From assembly GCA_964647995.1 (NCBI GenBank), contig CAZYNP010000032.1, positions 1-52,488 on the forward strand: 52,488 bases of DNA. Reading direction: 5' to 3'. Source of the DNA: an uncultured Cytophagia bacterium. Lineage in GTDB: Bacteria > Zhuqueibacterota > Zhuqueibacteria > Thermofontimicrobiales > Thermofontimicrobiaceae. The translations under genes and the position numbers were made by a program. Shown in pieces: positions 19,056 through 36,580 of the stretch. The notes beneath the pieces are model-generated. The model saw only the letters and a list, made by a program, of their open reading frames with translations. It did not search any database and had not been told where the DNA came from. Each line of letters opens with the position of its first letter. The stretch's first letter is position 1.

Positions 19056-19296
19056 AAATCCCTCAGCGCCTGGCGCAATCGTTTTTTGCCGGCCGACCAT
19101 CCGGTGGCTTTTGCCTGATGTTAGTTACAGGAAATTGTTTCGTTGCTGCGGGATAGGCATGATAGTGGGCGAAAAAACTGGTCTCAGCATAAACAAAGTT
19201 TTTGGCAATTCATAATAGTTCATGTTAACGTCAGTTGATTTTCAAATGGATTTGGTGGATAAAGATCTTTTTATTTTCTTAGCAGGAAAGCGAATC

Positions 19297-19368
19297 ATGA
19301 TATTCATGGGCATCGATTTTCGTTGGTGCTGGTGGTGGCGCATGTTATTTGGTAGTGGGGTAGATTAA
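19297..19368 (+). CDS. putative 23-codon Trp-rich leader peptide (MIFMGIDFRWCWWWRMLFGSGVD) of a trp-type attenuator
   Basis: ATG at 19297 lies 8 nt after AGGAAAG. It contains 4 Trp codons including TGG TGG TGG in tandem (19330-19338). Stop TAA at 19366-19368. Confidence 0.45.
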   Translation: MIFMGIDFRWCWWWRMLFGSGVD

Positions 19369-19437
19369 GAAGACCTCTAATTTCATTAGATAAAAATTTC
19401 GCTTAAATCTAACCCACTTTCGCCAGTGGGTTTTTTT
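19354..19437 (+). promoter_or_regulatory. putative transcription attenuator: alternative antiterminator (19354-19367 pairing with 19405-19418) versus terminator hairpin (19413-19418 / 19425-19430 followed by T7 run)
   Basis: AGTGGG occurs twice (19354-19359 and 19425-19430), and both copies are complementary to CCCACT at 19413-19418. The extended complementarity AGTGGGGTAGATTA / AAATCTAACCCACT overlaps the leader stop codon. The terminator CCCACT-TTCGCC-AGTGGG-TTTTTTT lies 29 nt upstream of the GTG start of the next gene. Confidence 0.45.
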
Positions 19438-19465
19438 ATTTTATGTGTAATTCATAGGAGGTGCT

Positions 19466-20320
19466 GTGATTCCAGTTAATGATAAGCAACTTAAGATCGG
19501 CGAATTGCCCCAATTGCGAATTGTCCCTCTATCAGAGATCATTTTTCATGAAGATCCGGATTTAGAACGTTCTGCCAAGCTCACCGACAGCATCCGCAAG
19601 GAAAATAAACTCAAAAATCCGCCGGTTGTCGCCACCCATCCCGGCAGTCAGAAATTTATGCTATTGGACGGGGCCAATCGGCTCACTGCACTGCAGAATC
19701 TCGGTATCCCCGACGTGCTGGTTCAGCATATCGATCTGTTCGATCCCGGCCTCGTTTTCCTGCATTGGCACCACGCCGTTGAAAAATTCACCAAAGCGTC
19801 CTTTTTAGACAAGCTAACCAATATTCCCGACATCTCCATCCGTCAAAACGAATGCCAGACCCTCTCGCAAAATGAGAACGGAGACTTGCTTTGTCAGATC
19901 CTATTTGGCGACGGCAGTATCTATGCCGTTCATGCCCACGCCGATCTATTCCAGCGAGTAAGGGACCTCAGAAATATCACCGAGATTTACAAGGGCTTTC
20001 AATACATGGATCGCGTGAGCTATACCAATTTAGAGCATTTGAAGAAAAACTACGCCCAATTCTGTGCGGTGATTGTCTTCCGCAAATTAACCAAAGAAGA
20101 GCTCATCGAGGTTACCAATCACGACCTGCGCATCCCCAGCGGCATCACCCGCATCATTCTTCCCAAGCGCGCGTTGCGAATCAATGTCCCGCTGGATATT
20201 CTGCGCTTTGATGTCTCGGTAGAACAGAAAAATTACTGGCTTCAAAAAAGGATCACTGAACAAATTAAGGACAAATCGATTCGGTTTTATCATGAACCCA
20301 CGTTTCTTTTTGATGAATAA
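19466..20320 (+). CDS. ParB/sulfiredoxin-fold (ParB-like N-terminal nuclease domain) protein, function unknown
   Basis: GTG start with a GGAGG ribosome-binding site. The ParB-NTD-like motif is 'NPPVVATHPGSQKFMLLDGANRLTALQNLG' (DGxxR). Confidence 0.55.
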   Translation: MIPVNDKQLKIGELPQLRIVPLSEIIFHEDPDLERSAKLTDSIRKENKLKNPPVVATHPGSQKFMLLDGANRLTALQNLGIPDVLVQHIDLFDPGLVFLHWHHAVEKFTKASFLDKLTNIPDISIRQNECQTLSQNENGDLLCQILFGDGSIYAVHAHADLFQRVRDLRNITEIYKGFQYMDRVSYTNLEHLKKNYAQFCAVIVFRKLTKEELIEVTNHDLRIPSGITRIILPKRALRINVPLDILRFDVSVEQKNYWLQKRITEQIKDKSIRFYHEPTFLFDE

Positions 20321-20392: not shown

Positions 20393-21757
20393 ATGGAAAA
20401 CACCAAAATCATACTGGTCGAAAATGACATCCCCCGACAATGGTATAATATCCAGGCCGATCTTCCCAAGCCATTGCCGCCAGTGTTGCATCCCGGCACC
20501 AAGCAACCGGTAGGGCCACAGGATCTGGCGCCACTGTTCCCTATGGAGCTGATCAAACAGGAAGTCAGCACCGAGCGCTGGATCGACATCCCCGATGAAG
20601 TGCTGGATATCTATCGCTTGTGGCGGCCATCGCCGGTGTATCGCGCCAAACGGCTGGAGAAAGTGCTGAACACACCCGCTAAAATTTATTATAAATATGA
20701 GGGAGTCAGCCCGGCTGGCAGCCATAAGCCGAACACGGCAATTGCGCAAGCATACTACAATAAGCAAGAGGGTGTCAAGCGCATCACCACCGAAACCGGT
20801 GCCGGACAATGGGGCAGCGCGCTAAGTCTCGCCTGCAACTTCTTCGGTCTGGAATGCAAAGTTTACATGGTCAAAGTCAGTTACTTCCAGAAGCCCTATC
20901 GTCGCGTGATGATCGAAACCTGGGGGGCTACGGTCGTCCCCAGTCCCAGTCCCGACACCAATGCCGGTCGTATGATCCTGCAACAGGATCCCGATTCACC
21001 GGGCAGCCTTGGGGTGGCCATCAGCGAGGCGGTGGAAGATGCCGCGCTGCGCGAGGATACCAAATATTCATTGGGCAGCGTGTTGAACCATGTGATTTTG
21101 CATCAAACTGTCGTTGGACTGGAAGCCAAAAAGCAGATGGAAATGGCTGGCGATTACCCCGATATTGTGATCGGCTGCGTAGGGGGAGGTAGCAATTTCG
21201 CTGGCTTTGCGTTTCCATTCCTGGCCGATAAATTCAAAGGCCAAGCGCTTCGGGCAATTGCCGTGGAACCGGCATCGTGTCCGACTTTGACTCGTGGGCC
21301 GTATGCGTACGATTTTGGCGATGTTGCCGAGATGACGCCACTGCTGGCCATGCACACGTTGGGCCACAAATTCATTCCGCCGGCAATTCATGCGGGTGGC
21401 CTTCGCTATCACGGCATGGCGCCGCTGGTCAGCCATTTGGTCAAAGAGAACTACATCGAGGCGCAGGCCTATAAGCAGGTAGAGGTTTTTGAAGCGGCAC
21501 GGCTGTTTGCTCGGGCCGAAGGGATTCTACCAGCACCCGAGTCATCCCATGCCATTCGCGCTACCATTGTCGAGGCCGAGCGGGCAAAACAGGAGGGCAA
21601 ATCCAAAGTGATCCTGTTCAATCTGAGTGGCCATGGCCATTTCGACATGGGCGCCTATGAGGCCTTTTTAGCCGGTAAACTAATCGATCATGAACTGCCC
21701 ACGGGCGAAATCAGCAAAGCATTGGATCTAATCAAAGATTACCCAACGATTCAATAG
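20393..21757 (+). CDS. trpB: tryptophan synthase beta chain, TrpB2-type (long, about 450 aa)
   Basis: 454 aa. PLP-enzyme motifs '[12 protein letters not shown]' (Lys) and '[11 protein letters not shown]' (glycine-rich loop) are present. Length and N-terminal extension are characteristic of the TrpB2 clade. AAGGAG ribosome-binding site. Confidence 0.85.
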
Positions 21758-21767
21758 CCCATACTAA

Positions 21768-21807
21768 CCGGAATCGCTGACGGGAAGTTGGCGATTCCGG
21801 GATTTTA
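21768..21807 (+). terminator. rho-independent terminator after trpB2 (CCGGAATCG ... CGATTCCGG + GATTTTA)
   Basis: 9-bp perfect stem (21768-21776 / 21792-21800) with a 15-nt loop, followed by a T-rich tract. Confidence 0.5.
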
Positions 21808-22150
21808 GTCACGAATTTTCCTCTTATTTCACATTCCACCAATCTTCCCTGATCGACGATCCATAGAATTTTTTATTTGTATCAGTTACTATTTTTAGAA
21901 TAAATCAAATGCTAAAGGATCATTAATTTTTTTATTGCTTTCAGCTTTTATAGATTTATTACTTGACTTTTTAAATTAATTTCATTATTTTACAATTACG
22001 GCTTGAGCAGATTTATCATACCTGCTGCAACAGCTCTCGATTTTTTATACAAAACATTTCAATCCTATACTTTTATTCTATTTGTTCCCTCTATTTTCTT
22101 TTTATCAGTTCGTTTCAATTTTATTATTACGCTCATTCCCAAGGCAAAAA

Positions 22151-22648
22151 ATGTCAATTAAAAATTTCACCCAACTTTATTGCTCTCATTATTCTGAAAT
22201 TTTTAGATATTGTTATCGACTAACTAAGAGCCGTGAAGACGCAGAAGATGTAACGGAAAGAGCTTTTATCAAAGCATATTATCACTTCGATCCCAATAAG
22301 AAAGCCTCTTTTCGCACCTTCATTTACCTGATTGCTACCAACATGTGCAAGGATTTTATTAAAAGTCGCCAGTTCCAACAGCGAGCGAAAAATATACAGA
22401 TTGACGATCCTAATTTCTCAGAACCACTTCAGGAAAACGATTTCAAGGCGAATGATCACGAGATTCTAATATCGATGCATAATTGCCTTGATCGTTTGTC
22501 ATTTGAAGAAAGACTATCAATTCGCTTGTATTACATCGAAGGTTTTAATTTGCAGGAGATTGCCGATATTCTTGGCAAAGCTCCGAATACCGCCAAAAAA
22601 CGGATCGAAACAGGAATTAAAAAATTGAAGGCTTGCCTGGAGCAATAG
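22151..22648 (+). CDS. RNA polymerase sigma-70 factor, ECF subfamily
   Basis: Region 2 is 'YRYCYRLTKSREDAEDVTERAFIKAY'. The region 4 helix-turn-helix is 'LQEIADILGKAPNTAKKRIETGIKKL'. Start taken at ATG 22151. Confidence 0.85.
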   Translation: MSIKNFTQLYCSHYSEIFRYCYRLTKSREDAEDVTERAFIKAYYHFDPNKKASFRTFIYLIATNMCKDFIKSRQFQQRAKNIQIDDPNFSEPLQENDFKANDHEILISMHNCLDRLSFEERLSIRLYYIEGFNLQEIADILGKAPNTAKKRIETGIKKLKACLEQ

Positions 22649-22717
22649 CAAATCAGTCTGCAAATATTTTGCAAATTTGCAAAGCAAAATCGTAAACAAG
22701 ATTAGAGAGAGATTACA

Positions 22718-23554
22718 ATGGATGATAAAGAGTTTGAGCAAATCATGGGAAAATGGAAACAAGCTGAGCAAAAAGCTCTCAATAAATTTGCTCTCCGCAG
22801 AAGCAATGCCTGTCTCAGCTTTGAGCAATTTGAAAAATATGCTCATGGCAATTTCACGGAAGTAGAAAGACAACATGTATCGAGCTGCGACTATTGCCAA
22901 AAAATGATCAAATTGTTTCACCAAAATGCTCCGCTATCAATAGCACGATTGTGGGTTCGGTGGGTGCAATGGATCAAACAGTGGCGGCATGATCGGCCCG
23001 CGGAAGACCGTTCTATCCCAGAATTCTTACCTTTTCCGCATCCAACCTACAATACGCTCAAACTGGTTTTACCAATCCTGGTCATCACTATCATGCTGTC
23101 AGTCCTGGTGTTTCGTAATGAAAAAGGAGTCGCACCTATAGCGCAGATTGAGCCTGCTCCATATCTTCCGCTTATATTGCGGGGAAATTTGAAGACGACA
23201 GAAGAGATTAAACTATTTCAAGAGGGAATGTCTTTTTATTCTCAACAAAATTATCCTCAAGCAATCGACAAATTATCCCAGGCAGTTAAATTGGACTCAA
23301 CCTGGGCCGCTGGATTTTTTTATTTGGGGGTGTCTCAGTTGTTGAACAATCAACCCCTTCTGGCCATTCCTTCGTTGCAAAAAGCAATCGCATTAGGCGA
23401 TAGTTTCCTCATTGAGAAGAGCTATTGGTATTTGGGAAATACCTATTTGCTGGTAGATCAAGGTTCACGAGCGCGGCAGGCTTTTGAAAAAGTGACGGAG
23501 ATGGGGGGTGATTATGCTAAACCGGCCAGTCAGATGCTCCAGCGACTTGAATAA
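22718..23554 (+). CDS. anti-sigma factor, zf-HC2 domain, single TM segment, periplasmic TPR repeats
   Basis: 'HVSSCDYCQKM' is the H-x3-C-x2-C zinc finger. A hydrophobic helix 'LVLPILVITIMLSVLVF' is followed by TPR-like repeats. It sits directly downstream of the ECF sigma gene. Confidence 0.7.
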   Translation: MDDKEFEQIMGKWKQAEQKALNKFALRRSNACLSFEQFEKYAHGNFTEVERQHVSSCDYCQKMIKLFHQNAPLSIARLWVRWVQWIKQWRHDRPAEDRSIPEFLPFPHPTYNTLKLVLPILVITIMLSVLVFRNEKGVAPIAQIEPAPYLPLILRGNLKTTEEIKLFQEGMSFYSQQNYPQAIDKLSQAVKLDSTWAAGFFYLGVSQLLNNQPLLAIPSLQKAIALGDSFLIEKSYWYLGNTYLLVDQGSRARQAFEKVTEMGGDYAKPASQMLQRLE

Positions 23555-23629
23555 TTGCGACTGTGAATGAATTCGCTAATAGTTGAGTTAATAAACTAAC
23601 GTATCCACAAAACAAAGGAGTAGATCGCC

Positions 23630-26600
23630 ATGAGAAAAACTATCAACAATCACTGGCAATTTTTCTGGCTAGCAATTGGAATGTCTATCCTCTTATCGAG
23701 TTCCGCTATCAAGCCCCAGACAGGTGATCGCATCTTGCCTTGGATGGCCCAAACCAAATCTCAAATTTCCCCCCAAGCCTGGCAAAAAATGACAGTTGAT
23801 GTGCGTATGTTGATTGGCGCTCCGACTGACTTTTTGAACCTGAAGGCCAACGTGATGGAAGTGAGCCAAATTGAAACGGCTGAGCCTGAAGTGGGTGTGC
23901 TGGTAAAATCGACCGGCCATCGCGAAGAATTGGAGGCGCTGGGAGCAAAGGTAGGCTCACAAATAGGTGATATTTTCACTATCCGCATCCCAATCGCTAA
24001 ATTGCCCGAACTGGCCAACAATCCCAGCGTCATGAGTATTGCACCATCGCTAAAACGCAGGGCAACCCTGGACGCCAGTGTGGTCGAGAACAAGGCAAAA
24101 CAGGTTCACCAGGGCCAGTATACGACTACTCCGCCAACTTATTCCGGCTACACTGGCAAGGGCGTGATTGTAGCCGATATTAGCACTGGCATCGACTGGC
24201 GCCATAGTGATTTCATTAACGATAGCAATAATACTTCGCGCATTCTGTCGATCTGGGATCAAACGCTTATTCCGCAAAGCGGCGAGAAAGGTCCGGCTGG
24301 TTTTTCATACGGAGTGGAATACACCCAAGCTGATATCAATAATGAGCTTGATGGTACACCCACTGGATACGTGCGCTCGAAAGATTTGGACGGGCATGGC
24401 ACCCATGTGATGGGCATTATTGCCGGCGATGGCTCAGCCACCGGGGGTGGGTTGCCTGGCTACACCTATGTGGGCATGGCGCCCCAGGCCGACATTATCG
24501 TTATCAAATCTTTACTGTATGATAGCCAGATTCTCGATGCGGTAAGCTATGCTATGAATAAAGCGGATCAATTTGGCAAACCGGTGGCTTTCAATATGAG
24601 TTTTGGCGGCCATTTTGGCGCCCATGATGGCACCAGTTTGTTGGAACAGGGAATTGACCTGGCTGTCAATCGCGGTAAAATCGTGATTGCCGTGTCCGCT
24701 GGCAATGAGGGCACCGATGCCGCTCACGGTGCATACATACACGCTGAAGGCACGGTGGCTACGGGATCAACCAACACCACCACATTTGTAATTCCAAGCT
24801 ACACTCCAAACAGCAGCGCCGGTAATGATTTTCTTGAATTCAATCTGTGGTACCAGGGTAATGATAATATCAATGTCAAAGTGACCACGCCGAATGGCTA
24901 TACCTGGAATGCATCAACAGGGTATGATAATAATGCCGGCGCAACCGCAACGTCGGATGGAGCAATCTACATCGACAATGCTTCTACCGGCAGAGATTTC
25001 AATAACAATGATCGCATGTGCTATATTCTGATCTGGGATTATTATTCATCACAGCCGCCTCGGGCAGGCACGTGGACGATCACGGTTACTGGAAATAACA
25101 TCACCGAAGGTGGACACTACGATGCGTGGCTTGATTTCAGCCAACTGGGGACCAATCAGGCATATTTTTCCGCAAGTTCTGGTTCGAACAAAGAACTGAT
25201 TGGCATTCCAGGCACAGCGGACAAAGTTATTACCGTGGCCGCGCATTCTACCAAAACATCCTGGGTCGATTATAGCGGCGCCACACGGACCGTTTCTGGT
25301 GCGGCACTGAATGATTTGGCCTATTTTAGTAGTCCTGGGCCCACCCGCGATGACCCTGGTCACATAGTCGGGCGGCAAAAGCCCGATATTAGCGCTTCTG
25401 GGTTCGGTGTCGTAGCCGCCCGCTCCGCCGATGCCTCGTGGTCGACCTCCAGCATGAATCGTAATAAAGATGGCGTTCATTTGATGATCTGGGGCACCAG
25501 CATGTCAGCGCCGCATATTGTCGGTGCTGCGGCATTGATGTTAGAGAAAAATCCAACGCTGACCGCGCAGGAGATCAAATCGTTGCTTACTGCCAATGCC
25601 CATGCTGATGCCTACACCGGGTCCGTTCCCAATTTGCGCTGGGGCTATGGCAAGCTGGACATCGCAGCGGTCATGCAGCAAGTGACGCCTCGTCAACAAG
25701 CCGTAGATCTATTTCCATCGTTCCAGGCAGATGATGGCCTATCTGGCACAACGGTTTCATTCAAGGCACGAGTTCAAAATAGCGGCGCAACCAACGACAG
25801 CTACAATTTAACCGTGTCCAGCCACTCCTGGCCCACCACCATCTGGAACGCCGCGGGCACCAGTCAGATCAGCAGTACCGGTGTCATCAACGCCCGGTCC
25901 CAACTGGAAATTTTGATCAAAGTGCAGATACCGGCCGGCACCCAGCCGAGCCGATGGGATACAGCGGTGATTCGAGCTACATCTGCCAGCAATGCCGCCA
26001 TTGCCGATCAAATTTCGGTAGTCACCCGAACCCCGGCCTCGCTGCCTTGGTCGGATAATTTCCCAAGCACCAAATTAGATACCATTAAATGGAATTTCAA
26101 CGGTGGTCCCGCCGAACTAAATTCGTTAGGAACCAACGAACCCAGCTCCCCTTATTCGCTAAATCTCAATGGCAACGAGCGTGGCGGAGATGAAGTTCAG
26201 TCCCAGGCCATTGATCTTTCAGGCAAAGCATACGTGATGTTGAGTTTCTATTATCAACGAACCGGTGGCGGGAATGCACCGGAATCTGGCGACGATCTCT
26301 GGGTCGATTACTATGATAACTCTGGCAACTGGGTGAATTTGAAGCAGTACTTAGGCAGCGGTAGCAGTATGAGTTCCTATATGCAAGAACAAATCCTTTT
26401 GCCAGCGACGGCCATGCATGCTCGCTTCAAAATTCGATTCCGCAACGTGGGAACTCCGGGACCCAATGACGATTGGTTTATCGATAATGTCGCGATCGCT
26501 GAGATGCTTCCAGCGACGATACCCTGGACCGATAATTTTCCGACCACTACTTTGGATGCCAACAAGTGGCCCGTAAACATCGGTCCGGCTGTTGTAAACT

Positions 26601-29600
26601 CCAACGGCTTAAATGAGCCAAGTGCACCCTATTCGCTGGATTTGAACGGCACCGATGAGGTCCAATCGCAACCAATTGATTTAGCCGGAAAGAACAATGT
26701 CGCCCTGCTGTACTATTACCAAAAGAAAGGTGGCGGCGACTCACCCGAATCCGGCAATGATCTGTACATCGATTATTACAATTCATCTGGTAATTGGGTT
26801 AATTTGAAGCAGCATCTGGGTAGTAGTCCCGATATGACCGCTTACCAATTGGAATATGTACCGCTACCAACTGCCGCTTACTATAACGGTTTCCGCATTC
26901 GATTTCGTACCACTGGCGATGCGAATTCTGATGATTGGTTTGTGGATGATGTGAAAATTCAAATCTTGCTACCGCCCAATATTACCTGGACACCCCAAAG
27001 TATCTCAGTTGCTTTATCGCCAACAGCTACCACCTCTCGTTTTCTCACTATCGGTAATACTGGCCAAGGAGATTTGTTTTTCGATCTCTTCGTTGCCATT
27101 CCTATGGGTGCTAAAGCAAACCTGCTAAATTTCGAACCCGCAACAAGAGATTATCCTGATAATTATTTTAGCTGCAATTTCTTGAAGGACGAAAGTGATT
27201 TCCGTCACGGGGCGCCGGTGCTGCTACGTCGTGGCGGTCCTGACAGCTACGGCCATTTTTGGAGAGATAGTGATGAACCCGGTGGACCAAGTTTCAATTG
27301 GGTTGAGATTTCAACCTCTGGTACACCAATTACCGGATTGGGCGATGATACAAATGTAGGACCATTCGATATCGGTTTTTCTTTTCCATTCTTTGGGAAT
27401 AATTTCTCTTCTTTCCGATTTTGCACTAATGGCTTTATAAGTTTTTCCAGCACCTCAACCAGCTACCAAAACAATCCAATTCCGAATAACTCTGTTTACA
27501 ACCTTGTCGCTCCATTCTGGGACGACCTGGATTTTCGAACCAGCGGCAGCGCTTTTTATAAATTTGACGGCGAAAAACTTATTGTCGAATACAAAGATGT
27601 TCCGCTTCGTTCCAACGCCGGCGGCCCTTACACATTTGAAATTTTGCTTTATCGTGATGGTCGCATTAAATTTCAATATTTAACTATGGGATCTCCCGTC
27701 AATAGTTGCACTGTAGGCATCCAGAACGCCAATGGCACCGATGGGTTAGAGATAGCTTTTAATACAAGTTATCTTCATAATAACATGGCCATACTGATTT
27801 ATGCCTACGCGACCAATTGGTTGTCATTTAAACCGACCTCGGGACACATTCCGCCAGGAGGAAATCTAGTTGACACCTTATCATTCAATACAACAGGGCT
27901 CACACCGGATTCCACTTATCAGGTCAATCTTGTTATTCGGAGCAACGACGAAATCAATGACACAGTGCAAGTTCCAATAGAACTAAAAATTAATAGTCCC
28001 GATATTAGTTCAACGCCATCGGCCATAAATGTTGCGCTATCGAAACCAGATAGCATCCGACAAGCCATAATGTTGACTAATAATGGCACTGGCAACTTGC
28101 AATATCAACTTGGTGTTATAGGCGCGCTAACATCATCGAGCATGGGAGGGGTTGGGATTGTTGCCAATTATATCGATCGCACTTTACATACGATTGACCT
28201 GAAGTCGAACACAATCAGAGGCCCCTTCTTAAGTGGGAGTTTGGGTTCTTCGAATTTGCTGGATGTTGCTATTACGCCGGATAATAAAACCGCTTTAATT
28301 TCAAATGGTGCCGGTAACCAGGTTTATTTCGTCAACATAGATAATCCAGCAGCGCCTACAATTCAGGGTAAAGTTGATCTTGGTTTTTTTGCTGAAGATA
28401 TAGCTATTACACCGGACGGCAGGTTCGCTTTGGTTTCGGATGGTGCAAATGATACAAAAATAGCCGTTGTGGGAATAACCAGCCGTACTTTATCAACGAG
28501 CATTAATCTCACTCCTCGTCGGGTGCAATCAATAGCCATTGCTGCCGATGGTCAAACCGTGCTGGCAGCAGATTATAATAATGCTCGCGTCCACGTACTT
28601 AGACTGAATCCAATAACTGGAACTATAATCGACCTCAATCTAGCGCTGGTTGTTGGCGATGGGCCAATCAATGTCAGCGTAAGCCCAGATGGTCAAACCG
28701 CATTAGTTGCCAATTATTCTGGATCTTCGATCAGCGTCCTTCGCATCACGGCGCCGGGCGAGGTCAGTGTCGTGGCATCTATTCCCAATCTCAGCTATCC
28801 CCAGTCCATCGCTTTTAGCCCGGATGGGATCAGTGCCTATGTCCTTGAAACTGGTACAAGTCCGGATCGTCTCGCGGCTTTAACTATCAGCGGCGCGGGC
28901 CAAGTTACCGACACTGGCCAACGAGCGACCTTAATTGCCAATGCGACTGGTGGCTTTTATGGAATCGATGTCATAGCTATTTCTGCTAACGGCTCCCGCG
29001 CTTATGTAGGGAATTCATCATCATCAGGAACTTCAACAAATAAAGTAGCTGTTGTGGAACTCAATACGATGACGATGGCCAATAGTCTATCCGCGGGTAA
29101 TTATCCGGTTGCTGTGGCCCTAAGCAACAGTAGTTCATGGTTATCTGTTGCTCCTCCAGCAAACGGCGAGATTCTTCCCAACGGCACTAAAAGCATTGAA
29201 CTTATCATCCACTCGAAAGATCTGGCACCCGATTCGACCTATCATGGCAAAGTGCTGATTTCGAGCAATGACCCCGATGAATCCCTTGTAACTATTCCGG
29301 TGAAATTAACCGTTACCAGCGGGCCTCACGCTCCCAAGCATTTCGTCTTTCGCGCCAATACTGAGGTTAGCTACAGCATTATTATCGATGCGGCCACGTT
29401 GGATCAACTGCCGTTGCAAGTGGGCGATGAAATTGGCGTTTTTACGCCGGCGGGCTTATGTGTCGGCGCCTCAGTATGGACCAGCGCGCTTCCACTACCT
29501 CTAGTCGCCTGGATGGATGACAATCAAACCTCGGTTGTGGACGGCTATCGCGTTGGCGAGAAAATGTTCTTCCGCATCTGGGATGCCAGTGGCGGCGCGA

Positions 29601-29932
29601 CAGCGGAATACCCTGCAATCCCCACTTATACTGCTGGCAATGGTAACTTCGGCGATGGCCCGTTTGCCAGGATTGCCAAATTGGAAGCTCTCACTTCAGC
29701 GAAGCAAACTATCTATCTGACCAGAGGCTGGAATTGGATTTCTACTAATGTTGAACCTGAGACTCTAAACGTGGCCGCGGTCACTCGCAAAGTGCTGAAT
29801 TTAGTCATTATGGTCAACGGTAATGGGCAATTTTATATTCCCGGAGTAGTCAATGCAATTGGAAATTATAACGTTCGGGAAGGTTACAAAGTCTACGTCA
29901 GCGCCAACGATTCCTTGGTCATTTTGGGCTAG
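23630..29932 (+). CDS. giant secreted subtilisin-like (S8) serine peptidase with multiple C-terminal modules (two lectin/MAM-like jelly-roll repeats, 7-bladed YVTN/lactonase-type beta-propeller, a ~115-aa domain shared with the 31057 gene, tandem ~70-aa modules); native C-terminus continues past an in-frame TAG
   Basis: AAGGAG ribosome-binding site and a signal peptide. The S8 triad context is 'VIVADISTGID' (Asp), 'DGHGTHVMG' (His), 'AGNEG' (Asn) and 'GTSMSAPHIVGAAALM' (Ser). A duplicated ~150-aa 'ESGDDLWVDYYDNSGNWVNLKQ' module is present. Beta-propeller repeats are 'ITPDG..A.V.N'. About 2100 aa up to TAG 29930-29932. Confidence 0.8.
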   Translation: MRKTINNHWQFFWLAIGMSILLSSSAIKPQTGDRILPWMAQTKSQISPQAWQKMTVDVRMLIGAPTDFLNLKANVMEVSQIETAEPEVGVLVKSTGHREELEALGAKVGSQIGDIFTIRIPIAKLPELANNPSVMSIAPSLKRRATLDASVVENKAKQVHQGQYTTTPPTYSGYTGKGVIVADISTGIDWRHSDFINDSNNTSRILSIWDQTLIPQSGEKGPAGFSYGVEYTQADINNELDGTPTGYVRSKDLDGHGTHVMGIIAGDGSATGGGLPGYTYVGMAPQADIIVIKSLLYDSQILDAVSYAMNKADQFGKPVAFNMSFGGHFGAHDGTSLLEQGIDLAVNRGKIVIAVSAGNEGTDAAHGAYIHAEGTVATGSTNTTTFVIPSYTPNSSAGNDFLEFNLWYQGNDNINVKVTTPNGYTWNASTGYDNNAGATATSDGAIYIDNASTGRDFNNNDRMCYILIWDYYSSQPPRAGTWTITVTGNNITEGGHYDAWLDFSQLGTNQAYFSASSGSNKELIGIPGTADKVITVAAHSTKTSWVDYSGATRTVSGAALNDLAYFSSPGPTRDDPGHIVGRQKPDISASGFGVVAARSADASWSTSSMNRNKDGVHLMIWGTSMSAPHIVGAAALMLEKNPTLTAQEIKSLLTANAHADAYTGSVPNLRWGYGKLDIAAVMQQVTPRQQAVDLFPSFQADDGLSGTTVSFKARVQNSGATNDSYNLTVSSHSWPTTIWNAAGTSQISSTGVINARSQLEILIKVQIPAGTQPSRWDTAVIRATSASNAAIADQISVVTRTPASLPWSDNFPSTKLDTIKWNFNGGPAELNSLGTNEPSSPYSLNLNGNERGGDEVQSQAIDLSGKAYVMLSFYYQRTGGGNAPESGDDLWVDYYDNSGNWVNLKQYLGSGSSMSSYMQEQILLPATAMHARFKIRFRNVGTPGPNDDWFIDNVAIAEMLPATIPWTDNFPTTTLDANKWPVNIGPAVVNSNGLNEPSAPYSLDLNGTDEVQSQPIDLAGKNNVALLYYYQKKGGGDSPESGNDLYIDYYNSSGNWVNLKQHLGSSPDMTAYQLEYVPLPTAAYYNGFRIRFRTTGDANSDDWFVDDVKIQILLPPNITWTPQSISVALSPTATTSRFLTIGNTGQGDLFFDLFVAIPMGAKANLLNFEPATRDYPDNYFSCNFLKDESDFRHGAPVLLRRGGPDSYGHFWRDSDEPGGPSFNWVEISTSGTPITGLGDDTNVGPFDIGFSFPFFGNNFSSFRFCTNGFISFSSTSTSYQNNPIPNNSVYNLVAPFWDDLDFRTSGSAFYKFDGEKLIVEYKDVPLRSNAGGPYTFEILLYRDGRIKFQYLTMGSPVNSCTVGIQNANGTDGLEIAFNTSYLHNNMAILIYAYATNWLSFKPTSGHIPPGGNLVDTLSFNTTGLTPDSTYQVNLVIRSNDEINDTVQVPIELKINSPDISSTPSAINVALSKPDSIRQAIMLTNNGTGNLQYQLGVIGALTSSSMGGVGIVANYIDRTLHTIDLKSNTIRGPFLSGSLGSSNLLDVAITPDNKTALISNGAGNQVYFVNIDNPAAPTIQGKVDLGFFAEDIAITPDGRFALVSDGANDTKIAVVGITSRTLSTSINLTPRRVQSIAIAADGQTVLAADYNNARVHVLRLNPITGTIIDLNLALVVGDGPINVSVSPDGQTALVANYSGSSISVLRITAPGEVSVVASIPNLSYPQSIAFSPDGISAYVLETGTSPDRLAALTISGAGQVTDTGQRATLIANATGGFYGIDVIAISANGSRAYVGNSSSSGTSTNKVAVVELNTMTMANSLSAGNYPVAVALSNSSSWLSVAPPANGEILPNGTKSIELIIHSKDLAPDSTYHGKVLISSNDPDESLVTIPVKLTVTSGPHAPKHFVFRANTEVSYSIIIDAATLDQLPLQVGDEIGVFTPAGLCVGASVWTSALPLPLVAWMDDNQTSVVDGYRVGEKMFFRIWDASGGATAEYPAIPTYTAGNGNFGDGPFARIAKLEALTSAKQTIYLTRGWNWISTNVEPETLNVAAVTRKVLNLVIMVNGNGQFYIPGVVNAIGNYNVREGYKVYVSANDSLVILG

Positions 29933-30864
29933 CCTGTTCCGGTCTCAACCCCGATTACGTTAAAAACCGGCTGGAATCTGGTGAGCTATCTGCCACATCA
30001 ACCACTGAATGCAGAAGTAGCCCTGGCTCATATTCACGCGAATCTGGCGATCGCCAAAAACGACATTGGCGGTTTTTTCATCCCCGGAGTGGTTAATACT
30101 TTGGGCAATATGGTGCCGGGAGAGGGTTATTTGCTGTATGTTAATAAATTAGACACACTGATATATCCTTCTGGTCCGAACTTAGCTAAGATTGCCGACC
30201 CATTGGTAGTAACTCATTGTTCTAAACCCGCCCACTTTCAGGTTGTGCCCCCACAGGCGACAATTATTGCGTTGTCGTCACTTCGGTTAAAATCGACGGA
30301 CAACTGCCCACGCCCGGCACTGAGATTGGTGTATTTACTGAGAGTGGTCTTTGTGTTGGCGGCGGTGTCTGGATGAATCAAGAAATTCTGGCAATTACTG
30401 CCTGGCAGGATAATGGTCAGACACCCGAGATTGATGGTTACCTTCCCGGTGAAAAGATGCTCTTTAAAATTTGGTGCAACGACAACGACCGGGAGATCGA
30501 CCCGTTAGCATCATTCAAAAATGGCGATGGCAGCTTCGGCAATGACAGCTATGCCCAGGTGGAATTAGAAACCATCATGTTGCCAACCAGCTATGCCCTG
30601 GAACAGAATTATCCGAATCCGTTTAATCCAGAAACAACAATTAAATATCAGCTCCCCCGGCCGGGAAAAGTGACATTGATAATTTATAATTTGCTAGGGC
30701 AGGAGATCAAAAGGCTGGTTGATGATTATCAATTAGCAGGATACCATACTGCCCTCTGGGATGGGACGGATTCTCAAGGACGATCACTGACAAGTGGGAT
30801 CTATGTCTGTCGAATTCAGACCGAAGAATTTTTCGATAGCAAAAAACTTATAATGTTAAAATAG
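29933..30864 (+). pseudogene. disrupted 3' continuation of the S8 gene: same-frame segment after the TAG, -1 frameshift in a C5 run (30248-30252), then a third copy of the shared domain and a T9SS type-A C-terminal sorting domain
   Basis: Frame-2 translation after the TAG repeats the preceding ~70-aa module (GWNLVSYLP...FFIPGVVNTLGN). If the C5 run is read as C6, the translation becomes 'HFQVVPPTGDNYCVVVTSVKIDGQ', which aligns with 'HFKFTANTGESYSIVIDAATIDNQ' of the downstream gene. The region ends with the sorting-domain sequence 'NYPNPFNPETTIKYQLP...IYNLLGQEI'. Confidence 0.6.
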
Positions 30865-31056
30865 GCTGCGAGAGTTCTCTATCTTTTATTTTGAACTCAA
30901 TCAATCATCCTTTTTCTATAGCCAGGCAACTGCTTTCTCTGGGCTTGAGTTCTCCTTAATTATCGCCTGCTAACATTTGGTGATACTGATGTTCAAGAAC
31001 AGGCCTGGGACCATCCGCATCAAGCGGATAGTCCCAGGCAACTTAATTAATTTAGA

Positions 31057-34000
31057 ATGGAGCTAATGAAGATGAACACCAAAACTCTTAGCAAAAAAAC
31101 ATACCCGTTTTTTTTCCTAGCGACCATTATTTTAATTTTGATACTAGCGAAAATTTGTGAAGCAAGAAATGCACCCAAAATTGAAACCATTTGGGACAAT
31201 CAAATTAAAAAATATAAAATTAGAATGACATTTGACGTGCCTGCCACAAAAGAAAGCGATCCCATCAATCATTCATCCAACCTCCCCCCACTGGCGACAG
31301 CGACACTTGATGTTCCCAAATTCTCAGGTCTTTTTTTAGCAGCAGTTTCCGATGATAAAACACGAGTACTAATCCGTGATCAGCATGCGCCTAGAGCAGA
31401 GGTTAGTTCGTTGGAACTCAATTTGCAAGGTACCGTCAAAAATATCTGCACAATAGATAGAAATATACCGCCCCATTTTGAATCCGATAAAATAACAACC
31501 GACAAGTCAATTTCAGGAGCAAGCGAATCTAACTCTCAGGTTATCCTTATACCCGCAACACAAATAGATACAAAGTCATTACGAACCGCGCCCGTATTTA
31601 AATCCCATGTTGATACAACCAAGGTTTCAATAGCATTCACACCCATATCCATGTCTGCTGCATCAATGCAAGATAATGTCATCAGCAGTACGCCTGCTCT
31701 CAAAGAGATGAATCTTGCATTCGATCTCATAGCAAAAAAAACTTATCTAAAAGACAGCGCTGGCAATGAAATTTCGAGTCCTTCATCTGGTCAAGCAGTT
31801 TATTTCTATGGCGATTGGGATTGTATCGGTTCAGGAACCACGCCCTCTTTCAGGCGCGAATTCAGGCTTGACGGCTCATTATATTCTTATCTTGACGCAA
31901 CAGCCGTGGCAGGATATAGTTATACCACTCATGCTTCGGTAGCTTGGACTGCCACTGCTGGTTCGCACACCCTCGAATTCATTTTAGATTCTAATAACAC
32001 TATTGCCGAAACCAGCGAAACCAACAATACCTCAGTAAAGCAATGCACCACTGCTGGCGTATCGTTAGATCTCGTGGCAGAAAGAGTTTATTTAAAGGAT
32101 AGCAATGGGAATGAAATAGGTGTGCCAGCGGTTGGTCAATCAGTCTATTTTTATGCCGATTGGCGCTGCGATGGCTCAGGCACTACCCCTGTCTTTCGAG
32201 CTGAGTTCAGGCTTGATGGTTCTCTCTGGTCTTATGGGGAAGGAACCGCCACAGGTGGATACGGCTATACTAGCAATTCCAATATTCCATGGACGGCAAC
32301 GGCTGGCACCCACACGTTAGAACGAATTCTGGATGTTAATAATACTGTAACCGAAAACAGCGAGATTAATAACGTCGCCAGCAAGACCTGGAACTCAACA
32401 GGCTGGGATCTGGTAGCCGACAGAGTCTATCTAAAGGATAGCGCTGGTATTGAAGTTGGGACCCCAGCGCTTGGGCAAACCATATATTTCTATTCTGATT
32501 GGCACTGTGATGGCTCTGGCACTTCGGCCAGTTTCCGAGCTGAATTTAAACTTGATGGCTCGCTGTATGCCTACTGGACAGGTACTGCTGATGGAGGCCA
32601 TCATTACATCAGCAATGCGAATTCGCCATGGACGGCCACCAGCGGCAGTCACACTCTGGAGTGGATTTTGGACACCAATGCCAATATCTCTGAAAGCAAC
32701 GAAAATAATAACCTAGCAACCAAAAGCTCGACCACCACGGGTTGGGATCTGGTGGCCGATCGAGTCTATTTACTGGATGGCGCAGGTAATGAAGTTACAA
32801 CTCCCTCGGTTGGGGAATCGATCTATTTCTATTCGGATTGGCACTGCAACGGCTCTGGCACCACGTCGAGTTTTCGATCTGAATTTCGCCTGGACGCGTC
32901 TTTATATGCCTTTATTGATGGCACAGCCATCGGCGGCCATAGTTACAGTACTTATACTGGCCCATGGACGGCTTCCTATGGAAGCCATACATTAGAGTGG
33001 GTAGTCGATAGTAATGATGCGGTTTTAGAGGCCGATGAAAACAATAATAATTCTTCAATGACATGGAACACCGCGGGCATAACAGTCATATCGCCTAATG
33101 GTGGAGAGGTTTGGCCTGTCGGAGCAACCGAAACGCTAACCTGGTCTTCGGGTGGCACCAGCGGCAGTGTTAAAATTGAATATTCTACCAATGGTGGTGC
33201 CAATTGGTCAACTATCATCTCCAGTACGATCGATTATGGCTCATACATTTGGACAATTCCAAACACGCCGTCATCAGCGTGCCTTGTCAGGATTTCGGAC
33301 GTTGACGGAAATCCTTCTGATCAAAGTGACCATCCATTTACGATCATGAATGCAGCTATCACCTTAACAAAGCCCAATGCCGGCGAAAAGTGGACTGCGG
33401 GCTCATCACAAGAGATTACCTGGACCTCGAGCGGAACCAGCGGTAATGTGAAGATCGAATATTCTGCGAATGGTGGCTCCAATTGGTCAACAATTATCAC
33501 CAGTACTCCTGATGACGGTGCATACTCCTGGACAATACCAAATACGCCTTCGACAAATTGTCTGGTCAAAATTGCCGACACCGATGGCACTCCTTCCGAT
33601 CAAAGCGATAATCCATTTGCGATCCAAAGTGCATATATTACTGTAAACCAACCCAACGGAGGCGAAATCTGGACAGCCGGAACAACACAAAGTATAACCT
33701 GGAATTCCTTCGGCACTAGTGGGACCGTAAAGATAGAATACTCTGCGAATAATGGTTCAAGCTGGTCAACAATCATCTCAAGCGCCCCCGATAATGGGAT
33801 ATTTTCATGGAGCATTCCGGATATTTCATCAACAACATGCTTGCTAAGAATTTCCGACATTGATGGAAACCCATCCGACCAAAGCGACGCCCCTTTCACC
33901 ATCCAGAAGGCATATCTTACTGTTGTTAGACCCAATGGGGGCGAGTTATTCACTGTTGGAACAACTGAACAAATCACCTGGACGTCAGCAGCCACCAGCG

Positions 34001-36459
34001 GTAACGTTAAAATTGAATACTCCGCCAACAATGGAAATAGTTGGGCATCCGTCATTTCCAGCGGTCCTGACGATGGTGCTCACCCCTGGACAATTCCCAG
34101 CACTCCTTCGACCAATTGCCTGGTAAAAATCTCAGATGTCGACGGCAATCCTTCAGATCAAAGTGATGCTATTTTTACAATTTGTAATAATTATATTGTC
34201 GTGATTTCACCTAATGGAAATGAAGTATGGGAGGTTGGATCGATTAGAGACATTGTCTGGACTTCCAATGGTAATAGCGGCAATGTAGCAATCGAATATT
34301 CAACAAATGGCGGCATTGACTGGACAGTCGTTAGCTCCAGTACACCGGATGATGGATCATATTCCTGGGTAATTCCGAATACATCGTCAACAAACTGTCT
34401 GTTAAAAATTGCAGATATTGATGGCTATCCTGTCGATCAAAGTGATGGCTTTTTTACTATCCAGTCCTCTCATTTTAAATTCACCGCCAACACCGGTGAG
34501 AGCTATAGCATTGTTATTGATGCGGCCACTATTGATAACCAGTCATTGCTGCCTGGAGACGAAATTGGGGTCTTTACGTCGGCCGGTTTGTGCGTGGGAG
34601 CAACCACCTGGACCGGCACAACACCGTTGTCCTTAACCGCGTGGGCAGATGATAGCCAAACACCAGCAATTGATGGCTACCAAACTGGCGAAATGATGTT
34701 TTTCCGCATCTGGTCGCTAAGTTCCATAACGGAATACCGAACAGTTGCCACCTATTCAGTGGGCAATGGTAAATTCGGCGACGGCGCATACGCCAGAGTA
34801 TCCCGACTGGAGGCGCTAATTACCGAACAATTAACCGTTTCGATCTCGGACACAACCGGTGCGATCAGCAGCATTATTGACATCCCCATTATGATAACCG
34901 ATGTATCAGGCAAAGGAATTATCTCAGTTGCAATGACCATTCAGACCGACACGACCGTCCTGATTCCTATTAGCGCAAGCAATGCTGGCACGCTTACTGC
35001 AGGCTGGGGCATGCCAACTTACAATACGTTAAATGGGCAAATAACCGTAGGCATTTCTGGTACTGCACCACTCAGTGGCAAGGGGAAATTGTGCTTTATC
35101 CGGTGTCAGGTCAATCCAAGGATAGCCGCTGGCAACAGCACGATAGTCCATTTTGTCAAAGTAATGCTGAATGAAGGAAACCCGCCAGCCATAACCCGTG
35201 ATGGCTTATTTAGGGTCAGCAGTGGCTTTCGTGTGGCTGGCAACATAACTTATTATAGCTCAAATTCTGCTATTAGAGATGCGGTGGTTTCCTTAACCGG
35301 TTTCGCACGGCTGGAAAAAACGACTAATATGGCAGGACAATATGAATTCCTGAATGTTGTTGCTGGCAACTATACCGCCCGCCCAGGAAAGGCAAGAGCA
35401 CAAGGAGATGCGATTACCCCATACGATGCCGCCTTGACTTTGCAGTATATCGTCGGCCAACGATTGTTTACGCCCTATCAAATGATCGCAGCGGATGTTT
35501 CAGGCAATGGTCAGGTTTCTTCCTATGACGCATCGCTTATTCTCAAATATTATGTTCAGCTCATCCGCCAATTCCCCGTTATGTCGGATTCGATTCACTT
35601 CTGGACATTTGTGCCCAATAATTATCCCATCAGCTCAGTCAACTGGTCGCTGGCGCCAGATAGTCTCCGCTATGAACCGCTTAATACCGATCAATTGGAC
35701 CAGAATTATCTGGCAATTGTCTATGGCGATCCAAGCGGAAATTGGAGTCCGTCGGGGATGTTGGCAGGAGCCAGCAAAACAGGGGAAGTCCAGGTCACGC
35801 TCGGCTTGGGGAAATTACATTCGCTGCCAGACAACCGTTTGATGGTTCCAATAATGGTGTCTGGGGCCAATGCCCTCGTTTCTGCTGGGCTGATGGTGAA
35901 TTATGATCCTGCTGCCGTCAAGATAGTTGCAGTAACAACAACAGAATTGACCTCCGATTTTATCATTGCGCATCATGTTGACGCCAATCGACTCACCATT
36001 GGGCTAGCAGGCGCTGCGGCGATCAATCAAGATGGTGCCATAGCCACAATCATCTTTGAGAGCTCGCTTTCGAGTAACGAAATGACCGATATCCTTACGT
36101 TAAGCCAGGCGGATGTGAACGAGCAACCGGTTGCGGTTAAAGTTCAGCCAACCGCTCAAATACCAACGACCTCTATCCCGCAGCAATTCGTTCTGTTTCA
36201 GAACCATCCAAATCCGTTTAATCCGAGCACGTTGATTCGCTATCATCTGCCGGTGTTAGCTACGGTTAAATTGGAAATCTATAATTCAAGGGGAGAGTTG
36301 GTTAGAACCTTGGTGAATGAGACGCAACGCGCTGGAGATTATTCCGCCTCCTGGGATGGACGGAACGAGAGCGGCCACCCGGTGGCCAATGGAATGTATA
36401 TCTATTACCTTCGGTCGGGAGATGTGGTGTTAGCTCGGAAAATGGTTCTTCTTCGATAG
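31057..36459 (+). CDS. giant T9SS-sorted surface protein: 6x ~115-aa CARDB-like repeats, 9x ~83-aa beta-sandwich repeats, shared ~115-aa domain, cohesin-like and dockerin-like modules, T9SS type-A CTD
   Basis: N-terminal hydrophobic anchor. The start may be ATG 31066 or 31072. Repeats follow 'WDLVADRVYLKDSAGNE...YFY.DW.C.GSGT...WTA..GSHTLE' and 'ITVISPNGGEVW..G....TW.S.GTSG.VKIEYS.NGG..WS'. The dockerin-like repeats are 'ITPYDAALTLQYIVG' and 'AADVSGNGQVSSYDASLILKYYV'. Cohesin-like segments are present. The C-terminus is 'NHPNPFNPSTLIRYHLP...IYNSRGELV'. Confidence 0.8.
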   Translation: MELMKMNTKTLSKKTYPFFFLATIILILILAKICEARNAPKIETIWDNQIKKYKIRMTFDVPATKESDPINHSSNLPPLATATLDVPKFSGLFLAAVSDDKTRVLIRDQHAPRAEVSSLELNLQGTVKNICTIDRNIPPHFESDKITTDKSISGASESNSQVILIPATQIDTKSLRTAPVFKSHVDTTKVSIAFTPISMSAASMQDNVISSTPALKEMNLAFDLIAKKTYLKDSAGNEISSPSSGQAVYFYGDWDCIGSGTTPSFRREFRLDGSLYSYLDATAVAGYSYTTHASVAWTATAGSHTLEFILDSNNTIAETSETNNTSVKQCTTAGVSLDLVAERVYLKDSNGNEIGVPAVGQSVYFYADWRCDGSGTTPVFRAEFRLDGSLWSYGEGTATGGYGYTSNSNIPWTATAGTHTLERILDVNNTVTENSEINNVASKTWNSTGWDLVADRVYLKDSAGIEVGTPALGQTIYFYSDWHCDGSGTSASFRAEFKLDGSLYAYWTGTADGGHHYISNANSPWTATSGSHTLEWILDTNANISESNENNNLATKSSTTTGWDLVADRVYLLDGAGNEVTTPSVGESIYFYSDWHCNGSGTTSSFRSEFRLDASLYAFIDGTAIGGHSYSTYTGPWTASYGSHTLEWVVDSNDAVLEADENNNNSSMTWNTAGITVISPNGGEVWPVGATETLTWSSGGTSGSVKIEYSTNGGANWSTIISSTIDYGSYIWTIPNTPSSACLVRISDVDGNPSDQSDHPFTIMNAAITLTKPNAGEKWTAGSSQEITWTSSGTSGNVKIEYSANGGSNWSTIITSTPDDGAYSWTIPNTPSTNCLVKIADTDGTPSDQSDNPFAIQSAYITVNQPNGGEIWTAGTTQSITWNSFGTSGTVKIEYSANNGSSWSTIISSAPDNGIFSWSIPDISSTTCLLRISDIDGNPSDQSDAPFTIQKAYLTVVRPNGGELFTVGTTEQITWTSAATSGNVKIEYSANNGNSWASVISSGPDDGAHPWTIPSTPSTNCLVKISDVDGNPSDQSDAIFTICNNYIVVISPNGNEVWEVGSIRDIVWTSNGNSGNVAIEYSTNGGIDWTVVSSSTPDDGSYSWVIPNTSSTNCLLKIADIDGYPVDQSDGFFTIQSSHFKFTANTGESYSIVIDAATIDNQSLLPGDEIGVFTSAGLCVGATTWTGTTPLSLTAWADDSQTPAIDGYQTGEMMFFRIWSLSSITEYRTVATYSVGNGKFGDGAYARVSRLEALITEQLTVSISDTTGAISSIIDIPIMITDVSGKGIISVAMTIQTDTTVLIPISASNAGTLTAGWGMPTYNTLNGQITVGISGTAPLSGKGKLCFIRCQVNPRIAAGNSTIVHFVKVMLNEGNPPAITRDGLFRVSSGFRVAGNITYYSSNSAIRDAVVSLTGFARLEKTTNMAGQYEFLNVVAGNYTARPGKARAQGDAITPYDAALTLQYIVGQRLFTPYQMIAADVSGNGQVSSYDASLILKYYVQLIRQFPVMSDSIHFWTFVPNNYPISSVNWSLAPDSLRYEPLNTDQLDQNYLAIVYGDPSGNWSPSGMLAGASKTGEVQVTLGLGKLHSLPDNRLMVPIMVSGANALVSAGLMVNYDPAAVKIVAVTTTELTSDFIIAHHVDANRLTIGLAGAAAINQDGAIATIIFESSLSSNEMTDILTLSQADVNEQPVAVKVQPTAQIPTTSIPQQFVLFQNHPNPFNPSTLIRYHLPVLATVKLEIYNSRGELVRTLVNETQRAGDYSASWDGRNESGHPVANGMYIYYLRSGDVVLARKMVLLR

Positions 36460-36523
36460 CCGCATTCGCCAAATGGGGTGATGATATTTTAGATTTAGCA
36501 TCTCAATTCTTAATGAGAAAAAA

Positions 36524-36580
36524 CCTCCTGCCAGTGGGGTCTATGTTCTATTGCCACTGACGGGAGGTTCAACATTTTTT
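36524..36580 (+). terminator. rho-independent terminator after the 31057 gene (CCTCC-TG-CCAGTGG ... CCACTG-ACG-GGAGG followed by TTCAACATTTTTT)
   Basis: Long imperfect hairpin at 36524-36567 followed by a T6 run. Confidence 0.5.

Follow-up and report, generated by a model that had tools for sequence, protein, structure and literature searches.

A tryptophan-codon leader with attenuator features precedes a putative serine kinase-TrpB2 operon in Zhuqueibacterota and other poorly studied phyla

In the trp leader of Escherichia coli (trpL; Rfam family RF00513, Trp_leader), a short open reading frame (ORF) in which CGC comes after tandem UGG codons precedes a CCCRC...GYGGG terminator with a U-run, the antiterminator uses the 5' arm of that terminator, and the switch between the two structures is kinetic. 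For Actinobacteria and Proteobacteria, trp attenuators have been predicted (Seliverstov et al. 2005, PMC1262725; Vitreschak et al. 2004, cited there) that combine 2 or 3 UGG codons in the leader peptide with GC-rich terminators and with conserved "complementary triples" common to antiterminator and terminator, and also stand before operons that do not begin with trpE, e.g., trpB2A and trpS2, whereas Bacteroid-trp (RF01692; Weinberg et al. 2010, PMC2864571) is a cis-regulator of trp genes in Bacteroidetes of the Fibrobacteres-Chlorobi-Bacteroidetes (FCB) group. TrpB2 enzymes are O-phosphoserine-dependent tryptophan synthases, a substrate preference known since 2014 (Busch et al. 2014, as cited in PMC11917138), and the characterised ones have not been tied to a dedicated O-phosphoserine source or to a tryptophan (Trp) attenuator. 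Here, we describe a Trp-codon-rich leader that precedes a two-gene operon, encoding a homologue of free-serine kinases and a stand-alone TrpB2, in a 52,488-nucleotide (nt) stretch of DNA from an uncultured bacterium of the KSB1/Zhuqueibacterota group (GenBank assembly GCA_964647995.1, contig CAZYNP010000032.1, positions 1 to 52,488 of the forward strand; hereafter, the window). The locus is best explained, with a probability of roughly 0.8, by a ribosome-mediated attenuator that senses charged tRNA-Trp, combined with an operon-encoded route to tryptophan.

An earlier, sequence-only reading of the window had proposed a 23-codon leader ORF with its own ribosome-binding site and 4 Trp codons, 3 of them consecutive, followed by a repeated AGTGGG hexamer, and all of these are present. 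The AGTGGG copies occupy 19354-19359 and 19425-19430, CCCACT lies at 19413-19418, and T7 at 19431-19437; as had been claimed, CCCACT can pair with AGTGGG at either 19354 or 19425, which makes the 2 structures mutually exclusive. The parts of the element are as follows:

19284-19289, plus strand: Shine-Dalgarno-like AGGAAA, 7 nt 5' of the leader ATG, read from the sequence.
19297-19368, plus strand: leader ORF of 23 codons plus stop, peptide MIFMGIDFRWCWWWRMLFGSGVD, with ATG at 19297 and TAA at 19366-19368.
19306-19333, plus strand: 5' hairpin GGCAUCGAU/GUUGGUGCU over the first Trp codons, predicted in minimum free energy folds.
19324-19338, plus strand: putative regulatory Trp codons W-C-W-W-W, with TGG at 19324-19326 and TGGTGGTGG at 19330-19338.
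19353-19370, plus strand: region 2, the antiterminator 5' strand UAGUGGGGUAGAUUAAGA, overlapping the leader stop at 19366-19368 (alignment A2, columns 36-50).
19376-19390, plus strand: small apical hairpin UCUAAU-UUC-AUUAGA within the antiterminator loop, its stem kept in the nearest relative, L001.
19401-19418, plus strand: region 3, the shared strand GCUUAAAUCUAACCCACU, whose partner is either region 2 or region 4.
19411-19439, plus strand: intrinsic terminator AACCCACU-UUCGCC-AGUGGGUU with a U-run, an 8-bp stem followed by U7.

Further in-frame ATGs for the leader ORF lie at 19222 and 19306. A terminator scan independently recovered AACCCACT-TTCGCC-AGTGGGTT plus the T-run, and RNAduplex gave -17.0 kcal/mol for 19353-19370 paired with 19401-19418, an antiterminator that contains one G/A mismatch, versus -10.3 kcal/mol for the terminator hairpin. 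The 5' hairpin at 19306-19333, which is identical in sequence in L001 and does not involve region 2, may act as a pause hairpin, although its role is uncertain.

The element resembles E. coli trpL in the leader ORF, terminator and antiterminator features given above, with UGGUGGCGCA common to both leaders. RF00513 aligns to the window over its full length and places Trp codons on Trp codons and terminator on terminator, at 20.7 bits versus a gathering score of 41 (E = 0.03-0.06), with the model's 1:2 stem unmatched here; no Rfam family reached its gathering score in the window or in 20 related or similar loci. Unlike in E. coli, where the stop codon precedes region 2, the stop codon here lies inside it, the place of trpEDCBA downstream is taken by genes for a serine kinase homologue and TrpB2, and the element belongs to a bacterium of KSB1 type. 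Bacteroid-trp, the cis-regulator from the related phylum Bacteroidetes, had no match up to E = 10 in 19150-19480 and none at gathering score in the 20 related or similar loci. The attenuators of PMC1262725 share the UGG codons, the GC-rich terminators, the complementary triples and the occurrence before non-trpE operons, but differ in their motif (gGCC-rGCy-GGCC versus AGYGGG-CCCRCU-AGYGGG here), come from other phyla and include none described before a serine kinase.

A search of metagenomes with the pattern TGGTGGTGG-N55-85-CCCRCT-N4-18-RGYGGNNTTTT returned at least 120 loci. Among the matches listed with a plausible leader ORF, at least 50 precede trpE (2 confirmed by Pfam), at least 11 precede trpB2 alone and at least 5 precede the kinase gene plus trpB2. 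The trpE leaders have the same design, many with an ...SSG... stretch that corresponds to region 2 read as codons, and differ in the downstream operon; the design is therefore a common one for Trp attenuators. On trpB2-alone contigs (L089, L095, L100, L112, L121, L158, L164, L171, L187, L191 and L194), a similar Trp leader and terminator immediately precede a stand-alone trpB2 that is 61-71% identical, with no kinase gene, and attenuator control of trpB2 therefore extends more broadly than the kinase pairing. By its sequence, the window attenuator would thus be of the classical type, outside Rfam coverage and attached to an unusual operon; we found no earlier description of a Trp attenuator in the phyla concerned.

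Taken alone, the window is only suggestive and statistically not compelling: TGGTGGTGG occurs 4 times versus 0.3 expected, and the fold z-score of the element is only -1.8. That z-score would fit an incidental arrangement, in which an ordinary constitutive terminator, for instance that of the thioredoxin gene ending 240 nt upstream, happens to adjoin a W-rich ORF, as would the failure to find a leader promoter. What sets the element above chance is the comparison across genomes, that is, the enrichment of TGG runs and the covarying helices. The protein encoded by the first gene has hundreds of homologues, and a scan of one genome per species yielded 80 loci from KSB1/Zhuqueibacterota, Gemmatimonadota, Zixibacteria, Ignavibacteria, Eisenbacteria, Krumholzibacteria, Marinimicrobia and Chloroflexota, plus one archaeon. 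A leader ORF with a Trp run together with an intrinsic terminator was found in about 46 of the 74 loci with enough upstream sequence, in KSB1/Zhuqueibacterota, Gemmatimonadota, Eisenbacteria, Krumholzibacteria and other phyla. Both strands of the 80 loci hold 50 runs of (TGG)≥3, 35 of which lie on the coding strand of the leader zone (-320 to -60 from the gene), a zone that makes up 2% of the sequence, which amounts to a 109-fold enrichment. Breaks in the Trp run are always one codon long (WCWWW, WRWWWW, WWFWWW, WAWWW and WPWWW) and keep the TGG frame, pointing to a constraint on codons rather than on RNA pairing. All 35 aligned leaders have an in-frame ATG or GTG, and a Shine-Dalgarno-like motif precedes the in-frame start in 22 of 35, compared with 5 of 45 out-of-frame starts. 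The frame is kept in L001, a KSB1 bacterium whose kinase-homologue protein is 93% identical (leader peptide MSFCIDFRWCWWWRIFFSSGID); other leader peptides read ...NVLVWWWWWYNS... (L010) and MVSRSQIRWWWWRSRPSSGRNVNPS (L025). Because the same gene is preceded in several phyla by the ORF, with its frame kept, and by the terminator and the alternative pairing, and because the thioredoxin gene has a separate terminator-like site directly after its end (19086-19107), a merely incidental arrangement is hardly credible.

Covariation was assessed in alignment A2, which comprises 35 loci and spans the element from 6 nt 5' of the Trp run to 8 nt 3' of the terminator (116-132 nt). The terminator (columns 102-113 with 122-133) has 86.7% of its cells paired, versus 32-49% with partners slid, and a covariation score of 0.385 versus at most 0.137; the corresponding values for the antiterminator (columns 34-50 with 97-113) are 68.8% versus 36-54% and 0.211 versus at most 0.112, and its core (columns 36-43 with 104-111) is nearly always paired. 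Column 107 of the shared strand shows covariation with each of columns 40 and 128, the triples being U/A/U (n = 15), C/G/C (n = 13) and U/G/C (n = 4). At the level of the motif, the KSB1 triple is AGUGGG/CCCACU/AGUGGG and that of Gemmatimonadota is GCAGCGGG/CCCGCUGC/GCAGCGGG. Inside clades the inner stem is variable (CUGCA, CUAUG and CUAA), with region 2 following, and between the window and L001 the terminator carries a compensatory change from A-U to G-C, the G-C pair being that of L001. The conservation of W-rich peptides and covarying stems, on which the sequence-only reading had made its proposal depend, is thus borne out for both helices. Since region 2 is read as codons, the leader peptides carry a conserved "SG" or "SSGR" stretch. 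Within region 2 (19353-19365 of the window; A2 columns 41-48) there is also a conserved purine-rich stretch, GGGAGGA or GGGGAGGA, which is Shine-Dalgarno-like and lies inside the leader ORF; it pairs with a UCCYC stretch 5' of the terminator arm, and its version in the window is GGGGUAG.

The codon content of the leader appears to track the content of the operon, most clearly in L014 (2302-2981), where the leader HHWFWYWYYH (...HHWFWYWYYHISGGRN) mixes Trp, Phe and Tyr codons. At that locus, whose kinase is 51% identical, a chorismate mutase gene (Pfam CM_2, 1e-25) lies between the attenuator and the kinase-trpB2 pair. Two other arrangements were observed among the leaders. In L005, 2 full leader-terminator units (2420-2572 and 2716-2905) stand in tandem before one kinase-trpB2 operon, with leaders MHRSEFTISTKIITTTNWWWWRMSYSGTDSQY and ...ISTISKWWWWRVNSGVADLRKFDV and a promoter-like TTGACA-N17-TATATT between the units; in the first of these, ACCACCACCA lies immediately 5' of TGGTGGTGGTGG, and the two could pair. 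In Krumholzibacteria/Eisenbacteria-like loci (L056, L058, L059, L061, L067, L068 and L071), a leader of a second type lies about 120-260 nt 5' of the kinase gene and consists of very short ORFs ending in ...NWWRTSL, ...NWWRTSS or ...YWWCTYS, followed by 3 hairpins, 2 of them terminator-like. It has no Rfam match at E ≤ 1, and its endings resemble that of E. coli TrpL, ...GWWRTS.

Structural alternation by itself is silent on what flips the switch, and a trans-acting factor (a TRAP-like protein, an uncharged tRNA acting on a T-box, or a small ligand) could set it, with the Trp codons incidental; the 1:2 pairing of the E. coli model is also missing here. Spacing bears directly on this point. In most of the 35 class I loci, 12-14 nt (range 6-18) separate the last Trp codon from region 2, and in the window 14 nt do so. 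A ribosome covers approximately 12-13 nt 3' of its A site, and judging from the sequence a gap of 12-14 nt would let region 2 begin just past the 3' end of the span covered by a ribosome whose A site holds a Trp codon. Furthermore, the stop codon of the window lies inside region 2, and a terminating ribosome therefore covers it, so the spacing is that of an amino-acid attenuator, in which a stall at the Trp codons frees region 2 and a ribosome at the stop codon covers it. When folding was modelled for nascent RNA whose terminator 3' arm was still untranscribed and whose last Trp codon was occupied by the ribosome, at least 60% of the terminator 5' arm paired with region 2 in 29 of 35 loci (88% in the window); when the ribosome was instead set on the stop codon, the terminator formed in 34 of 35. 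The fit of the gap to the ribosome footprint, the conserved TGG run in frame with start and stop and with codon-sized insertions, and the shift of the run to W/F/Y where chorismate mutase is in the operon all speak against a trans-acting factor, as does the lack of any T-box or riboswitch match to Rfam in the window, at gathering score or even at E ≤ 10. For TRAP, there are just 3-4 (G/U)AG triplets here versus the approximately 11 given as needed in PMC3064811. We regard control by such a factor as very unlikely and ribosome-mediated attenuation as very probable.

Under ribosome-mediated attenuation, RNA polymerase would transcribe a leader for a 23-residue peptide with 4 Trp codons. When Trp is scarce, the ribosome would stall at 19324-19338 with its footprint ending at about 19349, leaving region 2 (19353-19370) free to pair with region 3 (19401-19418) as the latter emerges, so that no terminator would form and transcription would read through to the genes downstream. 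Given ample Trp, the ribosome would reach the UAA at 19366 and mask region 2, region 3 would pair with region 4 (19425-19432), and the hairpin with U7 would stop transcription 27 nt 5' of the first gene. We infer the stalling and the Trp-dependent read-through from the observed anatomy of the sequence, its conservation, covariation and spacing. Leader translation might instead control translation of the first gene, or the leader RNA or peptide might act mainly in trans, like rnTrpL/peTrpL of Sinorhizobium, and trans roles are documented for products of trp attenuators (PMC6614838, PMC7298713). The canonical GC-rich hairpin with U7 is conserved, however, the AGGAGG of the first gene lies approximately 20 nt 3' of the hairpin and is unsequestered in every predicted fold, and a role in trans would supplement attenuation in cis rather than substitute for it; there is thus only a slight chance that either is the main mode of action.

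Several observations count against attenuation as set out above. The masked folds suggested in the sequence-only reading, computed at equilibrium, behaved as an attenuator for the window itself, with the antiterminator in the "stalled" state and the terminator in the "at stop" state, but in 32 of 35 relatives the full-length RNA folded into the terminator in both. With the terminator favoured at equilibrium whatever the mask, the switch has to be kinetic, which for this element is an assumption. Untranslated nascent RNA still makes the antiterminator in 21 of 35 loci, and the default state without leader translation may therefore be read-through. No convincing region 1:2 anti-antiterminator emerged from the 35 loci (best duplex in the window -5.5 kcal/mol, z = +1.8; median z = -1.0), although the search for such pairing turned up a copy of CCCGC or CCCCAC near the ORF start in a few leaders of Gemmatimonadota and KSB1. 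The claim of classical trp attenuation geometry consequently holds for the leader, the terminator, the shared strand and the spacing, and fails for the four-region layout of E. coli: lacking the 1:2 pairing, the window element would be a three-strand switch operated by direct ribosome occlusion. As covariation, the contrast of U/A/U with C/G/C mostly follows the division into 2 clades and hence represents few independent events. Scanning the window between the thioredoxin gene and the leader revealed no consensus sigma-70 promoter; relatives L002 and L005 have TTGACA-17-TATATT, for which no equivalent could be placed in the window. Finally, most Ignavibacteria and Zixibacteria loci carry the gene pair without the leader, and the leader of the close relative L002 is down to a single Trp codon. 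At this latter locus (L002, 2821-2980), which shares the upstream thioredoxin gene and has a kinase 78% identical, region 2 and the terminator are kept and the peptide reads ..KLNWCRHLPLGRICS; it may represent a decaying sensor, a relaxed sensor or an assembly error.

The operon downstream of the element comprises the following features:

19466-20320, plus strand: homologue of the free L-serine kinases SbnI and SerK, 284 amino acids (aa), with Shine-Dalgarno sequence AGGAGG at 19456-19461.
20393-21757, plus strand: TrpB2, a stand-alone TrpB-like pyridoxal phosphate (PLP) enzyme of 454 aa.
21768-21800, plus strand: terminator-like 14-bp hairpin closing the two-gene operon.

The first gene had been described from the sequence as encoding a ParB/sulfiredoxin-fold protein, which is correct for one domain and too general for the whole, since the full length matches the serine kinases SbnI and SerK. 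Searches with NCBIfam hidden Markov models (HMMs) gave SbnI at 7e-20 and SerK at 1e-14, and a PDB search with a profile of 26 homologues retrieved only SbnI (1e-20) and SerK/PF0380, over residues 16-281. An AlphaFold2 model of the protein (predicted local distance difference test score, 85.9) was submitted to Foldseek, and each of the top 9 matches was to a serine kinase and spanned the full length (E-values, 1e-16 to 1e-13; template modelling scores normalised by target length, 0.73-0.81). Both searches thus returned the two-domain fold, with a ParB/Srx-like N-domain and a kinase-specific C-domain. E29 and D68-G69-x-N71-R72 (the DGxxR motif) are invariant in the 26 homologues; E29 aligns with the catalytic Glu (E30 of SerK and E20 of SbnI) and D68 with D58 of SbnI. 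The PDB entries include the SerK mutants E30A and E30Q (5x0e, 5x0j), and E20 and D58 of SbnI are reportedly essential. As candidate identities, a ParB partition protein or nuclease was rejected, with no match in Pfam and ParB models at E = 0.03-0.06, and so were ParB, Noc and Srx on Foldseek, where their matches are limited to the N-terminal approximately 80 residues at about 7e-4, some 10 orders weaker. The protein shares with SbnI (Staphylococcus) and SerK (Thermococcus; PMC5120207) the two-domain fold, the catalytic Glu, the DGxxR motif and an adjoining gene for a PLP enzyme or ligase that uses, or in the case of this TrpB2 would use, O-phosphoserine, and differs from them in that identity is just 17-22% and the partner is TrpB2 rather than SbnA or CysK.

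The designation of the second gene as a stand-alone TrpB2 proved accurate. It passes the curated cut-offs of NF009057 (766.5 bits, cut-off 366) and TIGR01415 (681.3, cut-off 518.85), whereas canonical trpB, TIGR00263, scores 154, under its cut-off of 392, and the closest solved structures are Sulfolobus-type TrpB2 chains (1e-125 to 1e-138, compared with about 1e-41 for TrpB1). Among 76 informative loci from several phyla, 65 have the TrpB2 gene 3' of the kinase homologue on the same strand. Outside this pairing, a Woesearchaeota genome (L062, 1406-4946) carries a member of the kinase family between sepS, encoding O-phosphoserine-tRNA ligase, and SepCysS, both above cut-offs and both consuming O-phosphoserine, which suggests that phosphorylation of free serine feeds tRNA-dependent cysteine synthesis in this reduced archaeon. 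Kinase homologues from Chloroflexota (L063-L065, L069, L070 and L072-L074) are 31-36% identical and lack both a TrpB2 neighbour and a Trp leader, and their flanking genes included no informative partner.

The ParB-fold protein could alternatively regulate trpB2 by binding DNA or a nucleotide, or serve as a CTP/ATP switch, with TrpB2 using L-serine. SbnI has been described as a DNA-binding regulator as well, and NCBI names it a bifunctional transcriptional regulator; a SerK-like protein has been reported to bind CTP rather than ATP (PMC12704722); and the kinase HMM scores lie far under the equivalog cut-offs (71.4 bits versus 350 for SbnI, NF033589; 53.8 versus 380 for SerK, NF053625), such that on its sequence the protein is to be called a homologue of SbnI and SerK and not an equivalog. 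On the other hand, only serine kinases match both domains over the full length, ParB, Noc and Srx being confined to the N-domain, the catalytic Glu and the DGxxR motif show no variation, and known or presumed users of O-phosphoserine adjoin the gene in 3 independent settings (TrpB2; sepS and SepCysS in L062; SbnA for SbnI). A regulatory role in place of serine phosphorylation is therefore rather unlikely.

SbnI supplies O-phosphoserine to SbnA, and kinship of the first gene with SbnI and SerK provides a rationale for the odd operon, namely a supply of O-phosphoserine to TrpB2. From protein homology and gene linkage, both directly observed, we infer the kinase activity and the use of O-phosphoserine as the substrate in vivo. 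The operon most likely serves to turn serine, ATP and indole into tryptophan when Trp starvation induces it: the O-phospho-L-serine made by the kinase would be joined with indole by TrpB2, amounting to indole salvage on Trp starvation; lying behind a Trp attenuator, the pair would be made when charged tRNA-Trp is low. We lean towards this O-phosphoserine pathway with appreciably less confidence than towards the attenuator. On the same homology and linkage, it is reasonably probable that kinase-TrpB2 constitutes a dedicated, formerly unrecognised route, with a nucleotide as phosphate donor in the step from L-serine to O-phosphoserine, induced by Trp starvation via the attenuator and widespread in KSB1, Gemmatimonadota and neighbouring phyla. 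The searchable open-access literature yielded no report linking TrpB2 with an SbnI/SerK serine kinase.

The region 3' of the operon (22082-40298) encodes an extracytoplasmic function (ECF)-type sigma-70 factor (22082-22648) and a tetratricopeptide repeat (TPR) protein (22718-23554), followed by 3 very large ORFs of 2100 aa (23630-29932), 1800 aa (31057-36459) and 1231 aa (36603-40298).

The attenuator itself is textbook biology, and its value here is that of a natural label, marking the genes downstream as induced by Trp starvation, here a pair that several little-studied phyla conserve. If the proposed pathway is true, it would identify the physiological origin, so far missing, of the O-phosphoserine used by TrpB2 and give this enzyme a role in starvation-induced indole salvage. 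Free-serine kinases, so far associated with a siderophore pathway and archaeal cysteine synthesis, would then extend to amino-acid salvage in many bacteria, and the two-enzyme path leading from serine and indole to tryptophan would be a simple one.

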